Position numbers and translations under genes: made by a program. Under the pieces are notes generated by a model. That model was not told the DNA's origin. It made no database searches and saw only the letters and a program-made list of their open reading frames with translations. Shown in pieces: positions 893 to 58,435 of a stretch of DNA of 60,198 nt. Position 1 is the stretch's first letter; each line of letters opens with the position of its first letter. The stretch is from NCBI GenBank assembly GCA_018175315.1, contig GCA_018175315.1_4769.1. The stretch is one strand, 5' to 3'. This DNA is from a phage.

Positions 893-2869
893 ATGAATCT
901 CCGCGATTATCAACAGGAAGCAGTCTATAGCGTTTTTCGCTATTTTGACGCTGAAAAGGGTAACGCGGGGAACCCTTTAATCCTGTTACCGACAGGGACA
1001 GGAAAATCGCTCGTTATCGCGGGGTTCCTCGATCTGCTTTATAAATGGTATCCAAACCAACGCGTAATGATGCTAACTCATGTCAAAGAGCTGATTGCGC
1101 AAAACTACGATAAATTAATGAAAGTCTGGCCCGAAGCGCCAGCAGGTATTTACAGCGCGGGTTTGAAGCGTAAAGAAGTCTATAATCTTATTACCTTTGC
1201 AGGGATTGCGTCCGTTGCTAAGCATCCGAAAAAGTTCGGCAAAGTTGATCTTATTTTTGTGGACGAAGCGCATCTTATTAGTCCGCGTGATGCAACAATG
1301 TATAAGAAGTTCTTTGCAGCGTTGCGTGAAGTTAACCCTTACTTAAAAATCATCGGCCTTACTGCTACACCTTATCGACTGGGGTATGGTTCAATTGTCA
1401 AGGAAAACGAAGACGATGATGCGTTATTTGATAAGGTAACATTCGATGCAACTACTCCGGAAGCCTTCAACTGGTTCCTGGAGCAGGGTTATCTTCTTCC
1501 GGTTGTGCCAAAGCGTACTAAGATGGAACTGGACCTCAACGGGGTAGGTAAACGCGGCGGTGAGTTTATCCAGAGTGAGTTGCAAAGTGCGGTAAATCGC
1601 GATGACGCAACACTCCGCGCACTTGAGGAAGCGATTGAATGTGGTGAAGACCGTCAAAGCTGGCTTATATTTTGTTCTGGCATTGAACACGCTAAAGACG
1701 CGTGCGATATGCTGAACGATATGGGTATTAGCTGTGGATGTATTCACTCTAAGCTTGATGCAAAAGAACGTGACGAGATTATTGAAAAATTCAAGCGCGG
1801 TGAATTTCGAGCATTAACTAACAATAACGTCTTAACCACAGGTTTTGATCACCCAATGCTGGACTTAATTATCATGCTCCGCCCAACTGCGTCGGCGGTG
1901 CTATGGGTCCAGATGCTGGGTCGCGGTACGCGTCCGGTGTACGCGGAGGGCTTTGATCTTTCCACGCAGGAGGGGCGCTTACAAGCTATTGCGGCAAGCC
2001 CTAAGCAGAACTGCCTTGTACTGGATTTCAGCGGTAATACGCGGCGTTTAGGCCCTATTAACGACCCTGTTAAGCCCAAGCGCCCTGGCGAAAAAGGTGC
2101 TGGTACTGCTCCGGTTAAAGAATGCGATGTATGCGGGTCGTATAATCATGCATCCGCTCGTTATTGCGGTGGCTTCGCACCAATCCCAATGGACAGCGTT
2201 ACACAGGAACAAGTTCAACAATTATATCTGAAAGGATTTAGACTACGCGGGACGGATTACGTCAAAGAAGGCTTTTGCGGTCATGAGTTTAAGTTCCAGA
2301 CCAAACTCAAGAAAGCTGCAAGTACGGAAGCCCTGATCAAGCAGGATATTCCAATAGTTGAAGACTTTAAAGTTACGCATGTTACTTATGCGAAGCACAC
2401 TAAACGCAATGACAGCTCTAAACCTCCAACAATGAAGGTGACTTATTATTGCGGTAGTAAAATATTCAGCGAATGGGTAGCTCTACTTCACGGTGACTGG
2501 GCAGGTCGTAAAGCGGTTGCATGGTGGAAGAAAAGGACTCATCTTCCTTTACCACAAACTATTGAAGAAGCTCTTGATGTTGCTGCAATGCTCAAAACAC
2601 CGAAATACATCAAAGTTCATACCAATAAGAAATGGCCTGAGATATTGAACTATGATTATGATGGTACGTGTTTCGGTAAGTTTGAAGCACCACAGGACGA
2701 CGAAGCTATTCAGGTTAAAGTATACGGGCAGGATGGAACAACAGAAGGTCCAAGCTATAACGATGATGTGAGCTGGGATGATATTGTTTCACAGAATACG
2801 CAAGGTATAACAGTGAACAATGTGGTTAATCCTGTGCAAGTAGATGATCCGGATTACGTTCCGTTCTAA
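893..2869 (+). CDS. SF2 DEAH-box helicase
   Basis: Walker A LLPTGTGKS, DEAH box (FVDEAHLIS), helicase C-terminal motifs (MLGRGTRP); Cys cluster CDVCGSYNHASARYCGG; ATG 3 nt after upstream stop. Confidence 0.75.
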   Translation: MNLRDYQQEAVYSVFRYFDAEKGNAGNPLILLPTGTGKSLVIAGFLDLLYKWYPNQRVMMLTHVKELIAQNYDKLMKVWPEAPAGIYSAGLKRKEVYNLITFAGIASVAKHPKKFGKVDLIFVDEAHLISPRDATMYKKFFAALREVNPYLKIIGLTATPYRLGYGSIVKENEDDDALFDKVTFDATTPEAFNWFLEQGYLLPVVPKRTKMELDLNGVGKRGGEFIQSELQSAVNRDDATLRALEEAIECGEDRQSWLIFCSGIEHAKDACDMLNDMGISCGCIHSKLDAKERDEIIEKFKRGEFRALTNNNVLTTGFDHPMLDLIIMLRPTASAVLWVQMLGRGTRPVYAEGFDLSTQEGRLQAIAASPKQNCLVLDFSGNTRRLGPINDPVKPKRPGEKGAGTAPVKECDVCGSYNHASARYCGGFAPIPMDSVTQEQVQQLYLKGFRLRGTDYVKEGFCGHEFKFQTKLKKAASTEALIKQDIPIVEDFKVTHVTYAKHTKRNDSSKPPTMKVTYYCGSKIFSEWVALLHGDWAGRKAVAWWKKRTHLPLPQTIEEALDVAAMLKTPKYIKVHTNKKWPEILNYDYDGTCFGKFEAPQDDEAIQVKVYGQDGTTEGPSYNDDVSWDDIVSQNTQGITVNNVVNPVQVDDPDYVPF

Positions 2870-2898
2870 TTGACTTCAACATCTAATGCCCCTACTAT
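2870..2898 (+). promoter_or_regulatory. sigma70-like promoter candidate TTGACT-N17-TACTAT overlapping a hairpin (AATGCCCC/GGGGCATT)
   Basis: Hexamers read directly at 2870-2875 and 2893-2898; lies between helicase stop and next ORF. Confidence 0.3.
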
Positions 2899-2928
2899 TG
2901 GGGCATTACTTATTTATAGGGGATTGCA

Positions 2929-3423
2929 ATGTACGTCCTAATTGATACAGATAAATTTGAACTCTTGGCAAAGCATCCCAATTGGTTGACATTACACCAA
3001 CTTGGAATTATCTGTTGTCCAGAGTCAACACTGGTAACACCAGTAAACGATTTAAAAGATCTTGAAGATGTTGATCTTCAACTGCTTTATATTAACCTGA
3101 CAGAAAACTTAGGAGCTGCACCATATGAACGGGAAATCGTTGAGCGCATTTTGTCTGATTACTTTACGCAACTTCCAGAAACGATCCTGGATCACGCCCA
3201 AATCAGCGCACAAGCCGAATTCTGTGTGGAATACGATATCCAAGGCTTTTGCTCACCTCAAATTGGGCAATACGTTCCGTCAATGGATGAAGGACTTTGG
3301 AAACCTGCCCGTGTCAAATACGATGCTGAACGGGAGGGTGGTATTATTTCCGGTGCCAGGGTCATTTGTGAGCAACCCGCATTGCAAGAAGCATGGACAC
3401 CGGGCAGAGGTGCGAAGAGCTAA
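2929..3423 (+). CDS. hypothetical protein
   Basis: 164-aa ORF with AGGGGA-type RBS; no recognisable motifs. Confidence 0.5.
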   Translation: MYVLIDTDKFELLAKHPNWLTLHQLGIICCPESTLVTPVNDLKDLEDVDLQLLYINLTENLGAAPYEREIVERILSDYFTQLPETILDHAQISAQAEFCVEYDIQGFCSPQIGQYVPSMDEGLWKPARVKYDAEREGGIISGARVICEQPALQEAWTPGRGAKS

Positions 3424-49297: not shown

Positions 49298-49513
49298 ATG
49301 GACTGTCAAAAAGAATTTGATCTTAAATACATAACCACATCAGAAATTGAAAACCGCTTCGGTCTTAGCCGTCGCAAATTATGTTCGCTTCGCGGTAAGC
49401 TGCCGGGCGAAGTTAAGATTGCTAACGTGTATGTCTATGTTCGTGCAGTTGCAGAGCCTGTCTTAATGTTGCACGCTGGCCGGGTTGTGCCGGAGGTTGG
49501 TCGTGGGTCGTAA
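49298..49513 (+). CDS. small HTH-type DNA-binding protein (putative)
   Basis: AGGAGG RBS; ITTSEIENRFGLSRRKLCSLR resembles a helix-turn-helix. Confidence 0.45.
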   Translation: MDCQKEFDLKYITTSEIENRFGLSRRKLCSLRGKLPGEVKIANVYVYVRAVAEPVLMLHAGRVVPEVGRGS

Positions 49514-50031: not shown

Positions 50032-52368
50032 ATGGAACTGTTTCCCGCTGAAATTAAAGCTTTCCCACAATGGGCGGTCGCCGATGCGGATAAAAAGCCG
50101 CTCGTATGGGATAACGATATTGGACGTTTGATGGCGGCGGACGTTACCGATCCGGATATGCTTATGACGTTTGAAGCTGCCAAAGGTTGCGCTGCTCATT
50201 TCAATAAACCTTATATTGGATTTGTGCTTACTGCCCAAGACCCGTTCACCTGCATCGATCTGGATGTGAAGAATGCAACCAATGAACCAGACCCCAAGAA
50301 GCACACGACGCCGGAACAGTTGCGCCGCTTCGAACAGATCATGACTGCGTTCGATACTTACACCGAAGTGAGTCGCTCAGGCTTGGGTGTTCACCTGTGG
50401 TTAAGAGGTAACATCGGTAAAGGTCGTCGACGTGATGGTGTCGAGGTTTATAGTCAGGAGCGTTTTATTATCTGCACGGGCAATCCCGTCTACAACAAAC
50501 CAGTTGCAGAACGTGATCATTACCTTACTATGCTTGTGAATGAAATTGATCTTCAGCGCAAGACATATGAAATTGAACTGGTAGAAAAAGATCCGGTAGA
50601 AGATGATGCAACTATTCATCAGCGTGCGCTTGAAGCAGATAACGGCGATAAGTATGCACGGTTATTTAACGGTGAATGGGTTGAAATGGGATTCCCCTCC
50701 CAGTCTGAAGCAGACCTTGCCCTTATTTCCATGTATGCATTCTACACGGAAAGTAATGAGCAATGTCGTCGTCTGTTTCGTTATAGTGCACTGGGAAAAC
50801 GTGAGAAGGCTAATAAGAACAATGTTCATATTGACCGTTGCTTGCGTATGTGTCGAGGTCGCATGGAGCGTGAGCGCATTGCCCAGGAAAACGTAGCGGC
50901 GCTGGCGCGGGATTACGCTGCCCGTATGCAAGCTGCACACAGCACAATGCAGCAGGTAGCGGAAATGCCTGTAACCACAGTCAGCCCGTCTGGTGAAATA
51001 GTAGTTGCAGAAAGTACGTCCATTGATGCAACCGCTATTGAGTGGCCTCCGGGGCTTGCTGGGGAGCTTGCGAAGTACATCTACAAAGCATCGCAACGTC
51101 CCGTGAAAGAAATTGCAATCACCGCATCGTTAGCATTTCTGTCTGGTGTGTGCGGTAAAGTATGGAATACTATCACCAACACAGGGCTGAACGGTTATTT
51201 TGTGCTTATTGCTCGATCTGGTGTGGGTAAAGAGATGCTTCACGCCGGACCCAGCTATATTTGCAAGCAAGTAGGGGAGCAATTACCGCAAGTTCATGAA
51301 TTTGTAGACATGACTAACTATGCGTCCGGTCCTGCATTGCGTAAAAGTTTTGCGGATCATAGTTCGTTTGTGAACATTAACGGAGAGTTTGGCAAAACCA
51401 TCAAAGGTATGGCAACAGCTCAGCCCGGTACTGCAAACTATACTCTGAAGCAAACTATCACAGATGTATATCAAAAATCTGGCGCAATGGATGTTGTTGG
51501 CGGTATTGGATATTCTGATAAGGCTAATAATACCAAAACAATGGAAGGGGTGGCGTTCAGCGTGCTGGGAGAAACAACACCGGACACGTTCTTTGAAGCA
51601 TTAACCCGTGAAATGATGGAAGACGGTTTCTTGTCCCGTTTCCACATTGTGCAATATGAAGGAGATCGAGTTCCTGCAAACGAAAACCCTGAGATTATAA
51701 TGCCCCAGCAGTTGAAGGACATGGTGTGCCATCTTGTTAACCACACCTTAGTAACAATGGCGAAGTTTCAAACGGTCACAGTTCAGTTAAGTCCTGAAGC
51801 TGAAAGGATTGAACGGGAGTTTAACCTGTTATGTGACGAACACATTAACGCAACCAAAGACGAAGCTATCCGTCAGCCGTGGAACCGTGCGCACCTTAAA
51901 GCTCTGCGCCTTGCGTCCCTGCTAGCGGTAGGGGAAAACTGGATCAACCCTGTCGTTCAGCCAAATCACATGCAATGGGCGGTAGATTTTGTTACGCATG
52001 GACAGGACATCATGATCAACGCATGGGAAAAAGGTACTATTGGCGGTGATGATGAAACGCGCGTGAAGGCTATTTGCCAGGTCTGCAAAGACTATCTTGG
52101 CGGTAAGATTGCATGTGATCGTAAGGAGCTGCGCGTTGACGGTATCATCCCGAAGGCAACTATCACACGCAGGACATACGGTCTGGCAGCATTCAAGAAC
52201 CACCGGATGGGGGCAGGTACTGCGACAGACCTGACTATCAAACAACTTGTAGACATGGGCGCGCTCGTTCCAGTCACGCGTGAAGATGCGTTGAAGCGTA
52301 ATTTCAGGGGATTGGGTTGGTATATAGACGAGTCCATTGAGAGTGTTTTCAAGGACTTAAGCAAATAA
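50032..52368 (+). CDS. DNA primase (prim-pol/AEP-type N-terminus with C-terminal ATPase/helicase-like region)
   Basis: AEP motifs FTCIDLDVKN (DxD) and SRSGLGVHLWL (SxH); Walker A-like ARSGVGKE; 778 aa. Confidence 0.65.
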   Translation: MELFPAEIKAFPQWAVADADKKPLVWDNDIGRLMAADVTDPDMLMTFEAAKGCAAHFNKPYIGFVLTAQDPFTCIDLDVKNATNEPDPKKHTTPEQLRRFEQIMTAFDTYTEVSRSGLGVHLWLRGNIGKGRRRDGVEVYSQERFIICTGNPVYNKPVAERDHYLTMLVNEIDLQRKTYEIELVEKDPVEDDATIHQRALEADNGDKYARLFNGEWVEMGFPSQSEADLALISMYAFYTESNEQCRRLFRYSALGKREKANKNNVHIDRCLRMCRGRMERERIAQENVAALARDYAARMQAAHSTMQQVAEMPVTTVSPSGEIVVAESTSIDATAIEWPPGLAGELAKYIYKASQRPVKEIAITASLAFLSGVCGKVWNTITNTGLNGYFVLIARSGVGKEMLHAGPSYICKQVGEQLPQVHEFVDMTNYASGPALRKSFADHSSFVNINGEFGKTIKGMATAQPGTANYTLKQTITDVYQKSGAMDVVGGIGYSDKANNTKTMEGVAFSVLGETTPDTFFEALTREMMEDGFLSRFHIVQYEGDRVPANENPEIIMPQQLKDMVCHLVNHTLVTMAKFQTVTVQLSPEAERIEREFNLLCDEHINATKDEAIRQPWNRAHLKALRLASLLAVGENWINPVVQPNHMQWAVDFVTHGQDIMINAWEKGTIGGDDETRVKAICQVCKDYLGGKIACDRKELRVDGIIPKATITRRTYGLAAFKNHRMGAGTATDLTIKQLVDMGALVPVTREDALKRNFRGLGWYIDESIESVFKDLSK

Positions 52369-52370
52369 AT

Positions 52371-52390
52371 AAAGGGCCGAAAGGCCCTTT
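52371..52390. terminator. bidirectional terminator between primase and a convergent minus-strand gene
   Basis: AAAGGGCC-GAAA-GGCCCTTT. Confidence 0.55.
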
Positions 52391-52394
52391 ATTG

Positions 52395-52860: not shown

Positions 52861-53118
52861 ATGAACATTGAAGATTTTCCTGTGTGGCCTGCCTTCATAC
52901 CGCCTCAGTCTACTACTGGGTCTTATTTTAGAATTGGGTTTGTCATAGAGTATCAATTAAATCTTTTGTCATATTTAAGAAAAGAATTAGACAAACTGAA
53001 TATTAATAATATTGGTCAATTGCGAAAAAGGCTCAAAATTAAACGGCGTATCACGGAATTAGATAAGGTTGTTACACAACTTCTTAGATACCAGAGAGTA
53101 GTTAATTTTAAGTTGTAA
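52861..53118 (+). CDS. hypothetical protein
   Basis: GAGG RBS before ATG 52861 (ORF track's longer ORF begins upstream). Confidence 0.45.
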   Translation: MNIEDFPVWPAFIPPQSTTGSYFRIGFVIEYQLNLLSYLRKELDKLNINNIGQLRKRLKIKRRITELDKVVTQLLRYQRVVNFKL

Positions 53119-53137
53119 CTTTTGTGAGGGTGATAAG

Positions 53138-53464
53138 ATGACCAATAACGTTCTAAGATTATTTGCTTACGGTCTGGCAAGTAAATTTGGCTTTGGTGAT
53201 GGTGATATTCTCGAATATTTTTGTGAAGACAATGATATTGATTTACAAGGACGAGATGAACATGACGTTTTAATTAAGCTGGTAAGAACTTATCTTTTAC
53301 CTCTTATTCCTCATGTTCAAGTGTATGAAATTGGATCGCTTCATAATCCAATCCGCTGTGAGGATGAGTTTATAAAAGAGCTTGAGCAGAGCGAGATTTA
53401 CGTTGATGTAAGTATTGATCAACTTGTACAATGTATTAACGAAACAGAAAAGGCGGACTGGTGA
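53138..53464 (+). CDS. hypothetical protein
   Basis: 108-aa acidic ORF with GAGGG RBS. Confidence 0.5.
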   Translation: MTNNVLRLFAYGLASKFGFGDGDILEYFCEDNDIDLQGRDEHDVLIKLVRTYLLPLIPHVQVYEIGSLHNPIRCEDEFIKELEQSEIYVDVSIDQLVQCINETEKADW

Positions 53465-53778
53465 TGGGAATTGTAAATACTATCTGTGAAGCAATTTATG
53501 CGGAGCTTATCCGTATTGAAACTAATCTGCATAAAGAAGGACGAAAAGAAATCAAAAGAATTCTTGTAGACTTCCCGACAGCAATGGATATTCGAAGAGA
53601 TGGGCATTTATACTATTGGGGTAATGAATACATCGATGAATGTGACGGAGGGCATTGTATCCACATGGCTATTATGAATTACCCTATTGTTCCAACAGAT
53701 CAAGTAACGGGTTTTGAGTTGATGTTAAATGATGGTACTTTAGCACCAAAAGCGGCAAAGGGAACCGCGCAAAATTGA
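53461..53778 (+). CDS. hypothetical protein
   Basis: 105 aa, ATGA overlap with upstream gene. Confidence 0.5.
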   Translation: MMGIVNTICEAIYAELIRIETNLHKEGRKEIKRILVDFPTAMDIRRDGHLYYWGNEYIDECDGGHCIHMAIMNYPIVPTDQVTGFELMLNDGTLAPKAAKGTAQN

Positions 53779-54090
53779 AGCTTGCCATTCAAGACTGCAT
53801 CCTTTAAGATAACCACAGTTAACGAGGTTTAACAATTTAACAACATTAACTTAGTGAACGATGCTTAACTCAAGCCCTTGAAAGCGGTAGCTGTACCTCC
53901 TTACAGCAACTACTTTCGCTGGGCTTCCTGGAGCGGACAGGGTAAACCCGCAACTTACTGAACGATGTGAACGATGTTTAACGCGACGGCGCCAGATGTA
54001 CCAAACCGTCACCAGCCTTTGGCGAGGCTGTACAAGTAGGCCAGGATAGACGAAGACGGCAGTCAAAGTAAGCTATCCGACAATCAAGAG

Positions 54091-54122
54091 AGCCCAGGAA
54101 TCCTTATGCCTGGGCTTTTTTG
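54091..54122 (+). terminator. rho-independent terminator
   Basis: AGCCCAGG ... CCTGGGCT followed by TTTTTT. Confidence 0.65.
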
Positions 54123-54195
54123 TTCCTTGCGATCAACATAACTTCAATATAAAATTCTTTATGAAGTGTTTTACATTAAAGTTATGGAGACAAAC

Positions 54196-54663
54196 ATGGC
54201 AGTAAATATTCGCGCTAAAGGTCAACGCGGTGAGCGGGAAGTATGTGATTTCTTTAATGCAATTTATGCCGAAATTTACGCAGAGCTGGGGATGCAGTTA
54301 CCGGAAAAACCTATTGCTCAGCGTAACCAGAATCAAAGTGCGGTCGGTGGTTGCGACATTAGCAATACATGCCACCATGCGGTTGAAGTAAAAAACCACG
54401 CTACGCCACAAGTAAACACATGGTGGAAGCAGACTGTCCAATCTGCTAAAGAGCTTGGCAGATATCCAGTTCTGATGTATAAAATAGAACGTAAAGGATG
54501 GAAGGTCGTTCTACCGCTTAATCCGGTTGTCTTCAGTAATGGGGAATGGCAGTGGTATGAAGTTAAAGATTCCATCCGCGCGGAAATTAGTCTTAATGAC
54601 TACCGCATTATTTTTAAAGCGCACGCGAAACAATGGTTAATTGATCGCGGCTCAATCCAATAA
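54196..54663 (+). CDS. PD-(D/E)XK-type nuclease (possible Holliday-junction resolvase)
   Basis: GGAG RBS before ATG 54196; GQRGEREV then GGCDIS...HAVEVKN gives a D...E-x-K arrangement. Confidence 0.45.
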   Translation: MAVNIRAKGQRGEREVCDFFNAIYAEIYAELGMQLPEKPIAQRNQNQSAVGGCDISNTCHHAVEVKNHATPQVNTWWKQTVQSAKELGRYPVLMYKIERKGWKVVLPLNPVVFSNGEWQWYEVKDSIRAEISLNDYRIIFKAHAKQWLIDRGSIQ

Positions 54664-54672
54664 GGTGAAATT

Positions 54673-55329
54673 ATGACTGACGTATTAAATAACATGCACA
54701 CTATTTCTATAACTAATTCTAGCGTAACTGCTGCATCCTTTGCACCAACTCTTCTCGGGGTGAAACGCTTAACGGACACCGCAATCCTGCCATCGTTTGC
54801 CAGTGCGGGGGCAGCTTGCTTTGACCTGCACGCGGACCTTAAAAGTGAAGAAGGTTGCGAACAAATCATTTTCTCTTACGAGCACATATTCCGCACAGGG
54901 TTAGCGTTTGATATTCCTGAAGGTTACGCGCTTATGGTGTATTCCCGTAGCGGACACGGATTCAAAAACGACGTGCGTCTGGCAAACTGCGTGGGCGTCA
55001 TTGATAGCGACTACACTGGGGAACTTAAGGTTAAGATTACTATTGATAACGATGGTAGTTTTACTGTCAATCATGGTGATCGCATTGCGCAAGCTATGCT
55101 TATTAAGCTGCCCAGCGTGCAACTGGTAGAAGTGGACGAGCTTAAGAGCACTGAGCGCGGTGCCAATGGCTTTGGGTCCACTGGCACGGGCGAACTTAAA
55201 AAGGGTAACGGCAAAGGGTGGAAACTTGGAGACGAGCAGTCCAACAACTTTGTACCTGCCACCAATGTGGTTACATCTGAGGAAGAAGTGTCTTTGCATC
55301 CAATTATGACTTCCCGCTATTTGAAATAG
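54673..55329 (+). CDS. dut: dUTP diphosphatase (dUTPase)
   Basis: Canonical dUTPase motifs: AGAACFDL, RSGHGFKNDVRLANCVGVIDSDYTGEL, GDRIAQ, RGANGFGSTG. Confidence 0.85.
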   Translation: MTDVLNNMHTISITNSSVTAASFAPTLLGVKRLTDTAILPSFASAGAACFDLHADLKSEEGCEQIIFSYEHIFRTGLAFDIPEGYALMVYSRSGHGFKNDVRLANCVGVIDSDYTGELKVKITIDNDGSFTVNHGDRIAQAMLIKLPSVQLVEVDELKSTERGANGFGSTGTGELKKGNGKGWKLGDEQSNNFVPATNVVTSEEEVSLHPIMTSRYLK

Positions 55330-57520: not shown

Positions 57521-58435
57521 ATGGCATTCAAGCCACATTTAGCGACTGACGCGGTTGAAGAAAAGATTAAGTTTCCGTGCTGTATACTGCCTAAAATCGA
57601 CGGTGTACGCGGTTTAAATCCAGACGGGCAGATAGTAGGGCGAAGCTTAAAGCTGTTTAAAAACCGCCATACAAGCGCAATTTTCAGCGGTCCCCAGTAC
57701 ATGGGCTATGACGGTGAACTTGCAGCAGGGTTGGAAACAGATCCAGACCTGTGTCGTAAAACAACCAGTGCGGTAAATACAATTGAAGGTAAACCGTTCC
57801 TGAAATGGCACATCTTTGATCTGTGCGCTGAGAGTGTTGCAGAGCTGGGCTATGAAGCCCGCTACAACATGATGAAAGATTTTATAACCACACAGCACGC
57901 GAAAGGTGAATTGCTCGACTTGCAAGTTGTGCCAATGTATGTGGTTAAGTCTTTAGAAGAGTTGCTCTACTGGGAAAACATCTGGCTTGATATGGGTTAT
58001 GAAGGTATTATTATCCGTGATCCTGACAAGCCTTATAAACATGGGCGCGGCACAGTTCGTGAAGGTGGATATCTTCGTATTAAACGCTTTATTCAGGAAG
58101 ACGCTATTGTCCTTGATATTATTGAGGGCGAAACTAACCTTAATGAAGCTACTGTTAACGAGCTGGGCAGGACTACACGATCTTCGCATCAGGAAAATAA
58201 AGTTCCTAACGGTATGATCGGGACGTTGGTTTGTAAAGACATTAAGACGGGCAATACAATCAACGTTAGTCCTGGTAAACTAACGCAAGAGGATAAGATT
58301 TATTATTGGAATAACCCTGACAAAATTAAAGGTCGGACTATTTCATATAAACACTTCCCTCATGGCGTGAAAGATAAACCGCGTTTTGCAAACTTTATGC
58401 ATTTCCGCGATGAAAGTGATCAGGCTTTAGATTAA
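57521..58435 (+). CDS. ATP-dependent DNA ligase
   Basis: Adenylation motif I KIDGVRG (KxDG); 304 aa like small phage ligases; AAGGAGGG RBS. Confidence 0.8.
   Translation: MAFKPHLATDAVEEKIKFPCCILPKIDGVRGLNPDGQIVGRSLKLFKNRHTSAIFSGPQYMGYDGELAAGLETDPDLCRKTTSAVNTIEGKPFLKWHIFDLCAESVAELGYEARYNMMKDFITTQHAKGELLDLQVVPMYVVKSLEELLYWENIWLDMGYEGIIIRDPDKPYKHGRGTVREGGYLRIKRFIQEDAIVLDIIEGETNLNEATVNELGRTTRSSHQENKVPNGMIGTLVCKDIKTGNTINVSPGKLTQEDKIYYWNNPDKIKGRTISYKHFPHGVKDKPRFANFMHFRDESDQALD

Follow-up and report, generated by a model that had tools for sequence, protein, structure and literature searches.

RESULTS

The element and its reading frames

The DNA analyzed here is a stretch of 60,198 nucleotides (nt), called the window below, that represents a Seuratvirus (Queuovirinae) genome (GenBank assembly GCA_018175315.1). 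We studied a segment at positions 53779 to 54122 that is free of supported open reading frames (ORFs) and lies within the rightward replication and DNA-metabolism region of the phage. We interpret it, with a probability of about 0.55, as a putative stand-alone gene for a functional structured noncoding RNA (ncRNA) of ~305 nt read from the + strand. The 701 nt around this element share 99.6% identity with Escherichia phage KurtStettler (Bas22) and 96.6 to 99% with 33 other Seuratvirus records. From the upstream stop codon to the end of the terminator, the segment measures 344 nt, and it contains the following features:

53782–53810, + strand: sigma70-like promoter found by a consensus scan, with −35 TTGCCA (53782–53787), a 17-nt spacer, and −10 TAAGAT (53805–53810)
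53818–53869, + strand: 5′ A/U-rich repeat array of six T[TG]AAC units, with tandem TTTAACAA twice (53828–53843) and the first TGAACGATG (53855)
53848–53951, + strand: module A, a direct repeat followed by P1 and then P3
53873–53925, + strand: P1 hairpin, 19 base pairs (bp) with bulges
53926–53931 (UCCUGG) with 54041–54046 (CCAGGA), + strand: P2, a long-range helix that closes the multibranch core
53933–53951, + strand: P3 hairpin, GCGG/CCGC, loop ACAGG(G/A)UAAAC
53952–53982, + strand: internal repeat block AACUUACUGAACGAUG-UGAACGAUG-UUUAAC at the head of module B, about half unpaired in the folding ensemble
53952–54056, + strand: module B
53985–54010, + strand: P4 hairpin, GACGG/CCGUC, 16-nt loop CGCCAGAUGUACCAAA
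54013–54030, + strand: P5 hairpin, CAGCCUU/GAGGCUG
54044–54078, + strand: P6 hairpin, GGAUAG/CUAUCC, 23-nt loop
54085–54122, + strand: intrinsic terminator with an extended 14-bp stem, seven G-C core pairs, and U6 (ΔG of −21.2 kcal/mol)

The upstream neighbor is an ORF for a 105–amino acid (aa) protein (phrog_25787) that ends at 53778, and the next gene, encoding a nuclease, starts at 54196; the genes on both sides of the element have the same orientation. A first-pass annotation of the window had found no ORF supported by a ribosome-binding site (RBS) between 53779 and 54122, and our analysis agrees with it. The same annotation had dismissed a 71-aa minus-strand ORF at 53851–54066. The dismissal was right: the ORF exists, but its frame is broken in Salmonella phage STP-SP5, where indels of 1, 2, 1, and 3 nt shift it and the two translations part after nine residues, VTVWYIWRR alone being common. 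Comparison of the window with STP-SP5 revealed no conserved reading frame in the element on either strand, small + strand ORFs included. Several GenBank records of BASEL phages (e.g., bas22_0061) nevertheless carry a 53-aa coding sequence (CDS) inside the element, which, judged from the sequence comparison, is most likely a spurious call:

53851–54012, minus strand: annotated 53-aa “hypothetical protein” (1752–1913 in L001, 2252–2413 in L003, and 452–613 in L167)

Promoter, terminator, and transcription unit

Transcription from the sigma70-like promoter is predicted to start near position 53817. The promoter hexamers of relatives differ from those of the window toward the consensus only: the −35 hexamer is TTGACG in ECP2304 and TTGACA in STP-SP5, and the −10 hexamer of STP-SP5 is TAATAT. 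The spacer remains 17 nt long in relatives while its bases change.

At the other end of the segment, a GC-rich hairpin followed by a T run had been noticed in the first pass. It is indeed present, with the core GCCCAGG/CCTGGGC at 54092–54098/54109–54115 and T6 at 54116–54121. A simple terminator scanner skipped it, as its 10-nt loop exceeds the scanner limit of 8. In VogelGryff-type phages, an unrelated GC hairpin followed by U6 stands at the terminator position. Since no terminator was seen between the upstream ORFs and the element, the RNA may also arise as a 3′ untranslated region (3′UTR) of the upstream transcript. Immediately beyond the terminator, a second promoter-like site marks the 3′ boundary of the element and lies outside the RNA:

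54127–54155, + strand: promoter-like site TTGCGA-17-TAAAAT of the downstream nuclease/dUTPase operon, identified by consensus match

Conservation and variant forms

The element was found in all 35 Seuratvirus records of the phage collection, in three IMG/VR contigs, and in four metagenome contigs; its carriers include five BASEL phages (Bas21 to Bas25). Three diverged forms can be distinguished: the common form, to which the window belongs, that of STP-SP5, and that of VogelGryff, Dru_SM1, and SA80RD. In STP-SP5, the 5′ half of the element has ~65 to 70% identity and the 3′ half 87 to 97%. The element as a whole is 65 to 97% identical, as against 45% for the upstream protein and 35 to 60% for the upstream DNA.

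In the VogelGryff/Dru_SM1/SA80RD form, all sequence past ~54035 is exchanged; next come a gene for an HNH homing endonuclease and a nuclease gene with 61% identity to that of the window. Altogether, five Seuratviruses have the 3′ third of the element, the terminator, and the nuclease gene exchanged, with the HNH gene inserted between them and the junction inside the element at ~54035. The arrangement looks like co-conversion around a homing event. An additional 100-aa ORF with a weak phrog_5486 match is located between the element terminator and the nuclease gene in Greed, SHIN8, WildeMaa, and STP-SP5. The coordinates of these variants are as follows:

L003 2436–3076 (VogelGryff) and L163 1645–2285 (Dru_SM1): exchanged region, equivalent to window ~54035–54195
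L002 2096–2398 (Greed) and L004 1995–2297 (STP-SP5): extra 100-aa ORF, insertion point at window ~54195

No homologue of the element outside Seuratvirus was found by sequence or covariance-model searches. Three IMG/VR pattern scans and one metagenome scan aimed at more distant homologues gave near-identical copies only; many apparent 15- to 17-nt scan matches were unrelated coding sequence from families of related contigs. Searches with covariance model R1 of 41 loci that encode nucleases related to the downstream one, and of 9g, K4PH164, EC151, and 83AMN, detected nothing significant, the best match being in Providencia phage PSTCR4 (E = 0.08). Blastn gave no match in 5426 Escherichia coli genomes. 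When window positions 53000 to 55000 were compared with Rfam 15 (4227 models; cmscan, E ≤ 10), two chance-level matches were obtained, of 12 to 14 bits against gathering scores of 110 to 270. The models covered include the c4 antisense RNA, CsrB/CsrC, 6S, tmRNA, the preQ1 riboswitches, HEARO, and ROOL/GOLLD, and a scan of the relatives’ elements returned nothing relevant. ARAGORN identified no tRNA or tmRNA in the region, and in the literature searched, no mention of an RNA, origin, or regulatory element at this locus was found.

Secondary structure and covariation

The + strand of the element folds better than shuffled sequences (z = −3.36), compared to z = −1.27 for the minus strand. RNAalifold and separate folding of the three forms gave one common architecture, the helices of which were checked by hand. 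P1, which has a z score of −5.5 when folded alone and is paired in 98.8 to 99% of alignment cells, contains six pairs with compensatory double changes that arose in STP-SP5 and, independently, in the IMG/VR contig L006. One compensatory pair, from C-G to U-A, is found in P3 of STP-SP5, and both one-sided changes in P5 lead to G·U on the + strand. In the VogelGryff type, P6 is written AAAUAA(GG)/(CC)UUAUUU, with three pairs changed on both sides and every pair kept; the P6 loop motif GAAG...AGUCAA(A)GUA is kept there as well, and two further changes in P6, in Seurat and ECP2304, produce G·U. No variation was seen in the pairs of P2 within the window type; in the VogelGryff type (CCGG), they are weakened.

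A 13-sequence MAFFT alignment comprises 44 pairs, is 99.5% paired, and contains 7 pairs changed on both sides. In an alignment of 16 sequences, 10 pairs are changed on both sides and 99.1% of cells are paired; here, the exchanged 3′ domain of the VogelGryff form was aligned by means of a covariance model for which the common form and that of STP-SP5 had served as input. Controls with slid partners yielded zero to two pairs changed on both sides, one to two in the case of the 16 sequences, and none of 500 shuffles reached the observed value. The both-sided changes stem from at least three lineages: STP-SP5, the IMG/VR contig L006, and the VogelGryff/Dru_SM1 type. G·U was found at 10 pair positions and C·A at 1, and pairs are formed in 99.1% of cases on the + strand, as opposed to 91.3% if the minus strand is folded. 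Because of this bias and this difference in pairing, the + strand appears to be the folded molecule, in agreement with the direction of the promoter-like site and the terminator.

Repeats and tandem modules

Three copies of TGAACGATG, at 53855, 53959, and 53968, had been reported in the first pass next to TTAAC motifs. All three are present on the + strand and are the only exact copies on either strand of the window, where ~0.23 per strand are expected for a 9-mer. The TTAAC motifs, too, are located beside the repeats, at 53819, 53829, 53837, 53846, 53865, and 53978. The more general motif T[TG]AAC occurs six times in 53819–53869, at a spacing of 8 to 10 nt, and three more times in 53959–53982; elsewhere in the window, its density does not exceed three copies per 70 nt. 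Tandem Repeats Finder reported 2.1 copies of a 9-nt unit at 53959–53977 and two copies of TTTAACAA at 53828–53843. The repeats are parts of a longer, 16- to 22-nt direct repeat, AACTTA(G/C)TGAACGATG...(C/T)TTAAC, located at 53848–53869 and 53952–53982.

In relatives, the number of repeats shifts by whole units. Dru_SM1 has one extra TGAACGATG (9 nt), STP-SP5 lacks exactly one unit of the 5′ array, and the repeat-unit variants TAAACGATG, GAAACGATG, and TTAACGATG are found.

Modules A and B are each headed by the AACUUA-S-UGAACGAUG…UUAAC repeat, and repeat families are spaced by 104 to 105 nt between them. Local alignment of the two modules gave a score of 46, compared to 18.5 ± 3.6 in shuffles, none of 500 of which reached 46. 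When the obvious direct repeat was left out, the score was 27, compared to 16.3 ± 2.9 (1 of 500 shuffles). These comparisons indicate that the element RNA arose by an ancient tandem duplication, the two copies of the ~105-nt module having since diverged. The P1 5′ arm and loop (GCGGTAGCTGTACC, 53884–53897) and the P4 loop (GCGCCAGATGTACC, 53989–54002) are related copies located 105 nt apart; UGUACC is displayed twice because the P1 arm and loop and the P4 loop belong to the two-module duplication.

The P1 loop and ribosomal RNA–like sequences

The apical loop of P1, ACCUCCUU(A) at 53895–53903, is identical to the last nine bases of 16S ribosomal RNA (rRNA), i.e., to the anti–Shine-Dalgarno sequence. 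The match to the rRNA operon (rrn) extends to 10 nt, ACCUCCUUAC, when the first spacer base is counted along with 16S nt 1534 to 1542. P1 always exposes ACCUCCUUA, with a probability of being unpaired of 1.0 for the loop in all three forms, and the loop ACCUCCUU is invariant, even in STP-SP5, whose surrounding hairpin differs at 20 positions.

A second resemblance to rrn is located in the 5′ array, where an uninterrupted run of 12 nt, UUUAACAAUUUA, reproduces the 3′ half of BoxA from the E. coli rrn leader together with the bases that follow it; ~0.007 twelve-mer matches are expected between the element and rrn leader sequences. As a BoxA (NusB-S10) antitermination site, consensus GCUCUUUAACAA, the sequence was rejected: UUUAACAA(UUUA) alone matches, and the 5′ GCUC is replaced by GAGG in the window and by GAGUC in STP-SP5. 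Two other candidates were also rejected. A preQ1-type pseudoknot around P3 was considered because the phage makes preQ0-DNA; it has no Rfam match, and its putative P2 partner (CUG) is replaced in L006. For a CsrB/RsmY-type sponge of CsrA, the GGA content (four to six per ~300 nt) is not above that of shuffles (P = 0.36 to 0.79), and the VogelGryff type contains no CAGGA.

Targets of the P1 loop were sought by duplex scans against all candidate translation-initiation regions. Genome-wide, complementarity to the P1 loop and the 3′ strand of its stem extends furthest at the RBSs of orf49298 (GCUGUUAGGAGGUA) and of the adenosine triphosphate (ATP)–dependent DNA ligase gene (UGUAAGGAGG):

49298–49513: orf49298, which opens the primase operon; its 71-aa product looks helix-turn-helix-like by eye
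57521–58435: ATP-dependent DNA ligase

In the ranking of initiation regions, orf49298 came first for the window and fourth for STP-SP5. Its site is partly retained in STP-SP5, and the flanking complementarity covaries at two of the four changed positions, which is not significant. The ligase site is not conserved in STP-SP5, and the duplex scan of phage 9g gave no orthologous target match.

The equivalent position in other phages

In Providencia phage PSTCR4, Vibrio phage 83AMN, and the Nonagvirus 9g, too, the nuclease gene is immediately preceded by a slot that lacks ORFs and closes with a terminator. Two of these slots are located as follows:

L010 2361–2890: PSTCR4 slot, unannotated, ORF-free, with a strong terminator
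L012 2513–3000: 83AMN slot, unannotated, ORF-free, with a strong terminator

The z scores of their folds are −7.98 (PSTCR4) and −3.26 (83AMN). Both contain TTGCGT-17-TATATT/TATTAT promoter-like sites and GTNAAC or GAACGA repeats. These slots may represent analogous ncRNAs, for which few relatives are known. The Nonagvirus slot (2816–3000 in the 9g locus L008; also L176 to L185) is a shorter ORF-free stretch with GTAAAC/GTTAAC, a hairpin carrying GGUAGAUUACCCCUUUUCG, and, 23 nt ahead of the nuclease gene, a terminator. The diverged contig L184 (~1540–1680) keeps AGUAGUUAAACCCCUUUUC in a different stem. These sequences resemble that of Seuratvirus P1 (GGUAGCUGUACCUCCUUA). By eye, and without statistics, pyrimidine-rich apical loops can be recognized in these slots: CUCC and ACCUCCC in PSTCR4/83AMN and ACCCCUUUU in 9g and the 9g-like contig L184. 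In phage 9g, an additional 91-aa ORF at L008 2540–2815, whose ATG overlaps the stop of 9g_00021 (ATGA), is unannotated in the 9g record and may be a missed gene.

Neighboring genes and other hairpins

The larger genes around the element are the following:

50032–52368: NrS-1-like primase-polymerase fused to a DUF3987 helicase (NrS-1-type helix-bundle domain and DUF3987 domain)
from 54196: PDDEXK/“RusA-like” nuclease gene, followed by genes for dUTPase, RNase H, and ligase

The primase part of the primase-helicase resembles the structure of the SaPI5 primase-helicase (7OLA). Between this gene and the element there are a few small ORFs without assigned function, the last of which encodes the 105-aa protein. 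No recognizable RNA-binding domain was found in the proteins encoded next to the element.

Two hairpins were noted upstream. At 52368–52393, where the primase-helicase gene meets a convergent gene of 74 aa on the minus strand, a perfect 11-bp hairpin, AATAAAGGGCC TTTC GGCCCTTTATT, probably terminates transcription from both sides. A minus-strand terminator-like hairpin (GCGGTTCCCTTTGCCGC and a T-rich tail) is located at 53752–53768, in the last part of the 105-aa ORF; STP-SP5 retains the stem, and the hairpin could halt antisense transcription crossing the element.

DISCUSSION

Evidence for and against a structured RNA

A small RNA or structured element was the main suggestion of the first-pass annotation. 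It is supported by the observed conservation of the segment, by the compensatory pairs, by the G·U pairs of the + strand, and by transcription-unit signals, namely, conserved hexamers and spacing of the promoter-like site and a terminator position that has survived an exchange of sequence. Our confidence that the segment encodes a structured RNA would be higher if the RNA sponge considered below were counted as the same kind of object.

Several observations weigh against this interpretation. The promoter TTGCCA-17-TAAGAT matches the consensus at 9 of 12 positions, and such matches are not enriched in the region (5 found, 7.5 expected). In the literature searched, we found no Seuratvirus transcriptome data. 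Sequence diversity is shallow and most of the covariation comes from one genome, STP-SP5. P4, invariant in 16 of 16 sequences, is uninformative for covariation; P2 is the weakest helix and partly competes with P6; and the covariation of P6 was read from an alignment fitted to the covariance model and thus carries less weight. No specific mRNA target of the P1 loop emerged, the best RBS matches being simply strong Shine-Dalgarno sites, and since numerous mRNAs would be able to pair with an anti–Shine-Dalgarno loop, specific regulation is less easily envisaged. Last, the repeat clusters are unique in the genome, direct, variable in copy number, and located near the primase-helicase gene, as would be expected of an origin of replication.

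Alternative explanations

According to the origin explanation, which we consider unlikely, the element functions as DNA: T[TG]AAC and TGAACGATG would be iterons or priming sites for the primase-helicase, whose gene ends 1.4 kb upstream, the + strand hairpins would be single-strand initiation structures, and transcription through the region might activate the origin. In SaPI and P4, the origin is an array of short iterons close to the rep gene or behind it; the crr of P4, made up of two direct repeats of ~120 bp, has a layout like that of the two ~105-nt modules of the element. ORF-free gaps with GTNAAC-type repeats are also present at the equivalent syntenic place in other Queuovirinae-like phages. 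The NrS-1 enzyme recognizes 5′-TTTGGTTA-3′ and 5′-GTGA-3′ on template DNA (PMC8718748). The element reads TTGTTAAA twice on the minus strand and GTGAAC twice on the + strand, which is faintly like these sites, but the resemblance spans 6 to 7 AT-rich bases only, and GTG, with two copies in ~300 nt, is not enriched. Duplex iteron origins do not need compensatory changes or one-strand G·U pairs, and the conserved promoter-like hexamers and terminator function, including the nonhomologous exchange of the terminator, would be left unexplained. Between the repeat clusters there are GC-rich hairpins rather than an AT-rich unwinding element; the AT-rich stretch 54123–54195 coincides with the next promoter. 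In addition, a period of 9 nt does not stay in phase with the turns of the DNA helix, and GC skew, which in phages mostly follows transcription, switches at ~15 kb and ~49 kb rather than at the element.

The same repeats could serve an RNA that titrates or recruits an RNA-binding protein through periodic UUAAC/UGAACGAUG units and perhaps CAGGA(U); candidates include Hfq, ProQ, CsrA, S1, a host defense RNase, and a phage protein such as the product of the adjacent 105-aa ORF. The repeat units are about half unpaired and are gained or lost whole, a typical trait of platforms for multivalent binding; three copies of CAGGA are present in RNAs of the CAjan type and of STP-SP5 (P ~ 0.003 to 0.004, shuffling); a terminator hairpin followed by U6 is the usual Hfq-binding module; and the phrog_25787 gene adjoins the element in all 35 records that have it. 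We nevertheless regard a sponge as doubtful. GGA is not enriched and the VogelGryff-type RNAs lack CAGGA, leaving a CsrB-like role unsupported; we know of no RNA-binding protein that recognizes UUAAC or AACGAUG; the adjacent proteins have no recognizable RNA-binding domain; and the invariant anti–Shine-Dalgarno loop would have no explanation. The proposal made in the first pass that the repeats are an array of protein-binding sites may still apply to them, as RNA or as DNA.

A role in cis appears quite unlikely. The segment would then be either a 3′UTR with a terminator that stabilizes or insulates the upstream operon or a BoxA-like attenuation/antitermination leader of the nuclease/dUTPase/RNase H/ligase operon. 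Upstream transcripts must enter the element, as no terminator intervenes; the flanking genes are co-oriented; and the 12-nt match UUUAACAAUUUA falls in the rrn leader BoxA region. Six conserved helices, an invariant loop, and a promoter of its own are, however, more than a stabilizing 3′UTR requires. The leader version is opposed by the absence of the GCUC 5′ half of BoxA and by the promoter-like site that the downstream operon itself possesses; besides, antitermination of the rrn type acts against Rho-dependent terminators, whereas the element ends in an intrinsic one with a 14-bp stem. Nor did anything specific speak for the first-pass option of a riboregulator for the nuclease/dUTPase genes: their operon is preceded by a promoter-like site of its own, and no special match to the nuclease RBS was found by complementarity. 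Least probable of all is a segment without any function of its own, i.e., a missed or misannotated small protein gene (the minus-strand ORF of 53 to 71 aa) or the decaying remnant of a mosaic junction. The 53-aa CDS does appear in several GenBank records, and the region borders recombination hot spots, with the HNH insertion and the extra ORF in some phages, but the minus-strand ORF is frameshifted in STP-SP5 with no other frame conserved, and the presence of the element in all genomes, its compensatory changes, and its invariant loop are opposed to neutral decay.

A possible mode of action

For the structured ncRNA that we favor, the following sequence of events can be proposed. Host RNA polymerase would start at the sigma70-type promoter (53782–53810), upstream read-through could also yield the RNA as a 3′UTR, and transcription would stop at the intrinsic terminator (54085–54122). 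We infer that the RNA accumulates, acts in trans early in infection, and has binding partners. By pairing with the Shine-Dalgarno regions of mRNAs from phage or host, its P1 loop may prevent binding of the 30S subunit, while the repeats could be binding or processing platforms for a protein partner. Since the anti–Shine-Dalgarno motif is the sole sequence that is both invariant and fully exposed, pairing of the loop with Shine-Dalgarno regions is the most economical mechanism; we propose such masking tentatively. If it is true, an RNA acting in trans with an anti–Shine-Dalgarno seed would be an unusual phage route to interfere with translation initiation.

A more far-reaching possibility, and in our opinion a long shot, is that the RNA is a deliberate mimic of rRNA that acts globally, presenting the 16S tail (ACCUCCUUA) on a hairpin together with rrn-leader-like UUUAACAAUUUA repeats. 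Such a mimic could soak up Shine-Dalgarno sequences or be a decoy for a factor or defense nuclease that recognizes the 16S 3′ end or the rrn leader, and it could reprogram translation or ribosome biogenesis during infection. If so, the hairpins with pyrimidine loops in Nonagvirus, PSTCR4, and the Vibrio phage would point to a subfamily-wide strategy. Were the element an origin instead, it would define the ori of Queuovirinae and the recognition sites of an NrS-1-like primase-polymerase. Whether small RNA or origin, the element would close a gap in the knowledge of Queuovirinae.

Strictly lytic coliphages beyond T4, T7, and lambda have almost no characterized ncRNAs. Annotation pipelines skip the locus or put a spurious minus-strand ORF there; this CDS should be removed, and the locus could seed an RNA family. 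The comparative support for the element is as good as the shallow diversity permits, and its BASEL carriers are easy to manipulate.

Comparison with known systems

The likeness of the element to the E. coli 16S 3′ end and rrn leader is confined to two short stretches, with no wider similarity to rrn, and the 16S-like sequence sits in a loop, whereas in 16S rRNA it is found at the free 3′ end. With the SaPI ori, P4 ori/crr, and NrS-1 sites, the element shares direct repeats of variable copy number near the gene of a self-loading primase-helicase and a two-module layout. In contrast to iteron origins, its structure is strand-specific, kept by compensatory change, and bracketed by a promoter-like site and a terminator.

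Small RNAs of phages and prophages include lambda OOP, P22 Sar, P1/P7 c4, and DicF, of which c4 and Sar cover ribosome-binding sites. The element has in common with trans-acting RNAs of this kind a short noncoding unit in the early or replication region, a Rho-independent terminator, and an exposed candidate seed; its predicted promoter would likewise be of the sigma70 type. Lambda PreS is presented in a preprint as a phage-encoded, trans-acting small RNA (bioRxiv 10.1101/2024.10.31.621285). The element differs from phage small RNAs in that it matches no Rfam family, c4 included, is ~305 nt long as opposed to 50 to 110 nt, is built of duplicated modules and short tandem repeats, has no cis-encoded antisense target, and exposes a generic anti–Shine-Dalgarno sequence instead of a gene-specific seed.

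In Staphylococcus aureus RNAIII and the Rsa small RNAs (UCCC loops), C-rich or anti–Shine-Dalgarno-like loops mask ribosome-binding sites. Those RNAs are from a Gram-positive host, are not phage-borne, and usually have several loops, whereas the element has one loop that copies the 16S tail over 9 to 10 nt, and no homology between them was detected. What they share with the element is a pyrimidine-rich loop complementary to GGAGG on a stable hairpin. Set against these systems, the element most likely represents a previously undescribed RNA family, a small structured RNA encoded by phages, with modular repeats and, unusually, a loop that copies the 16S tail.

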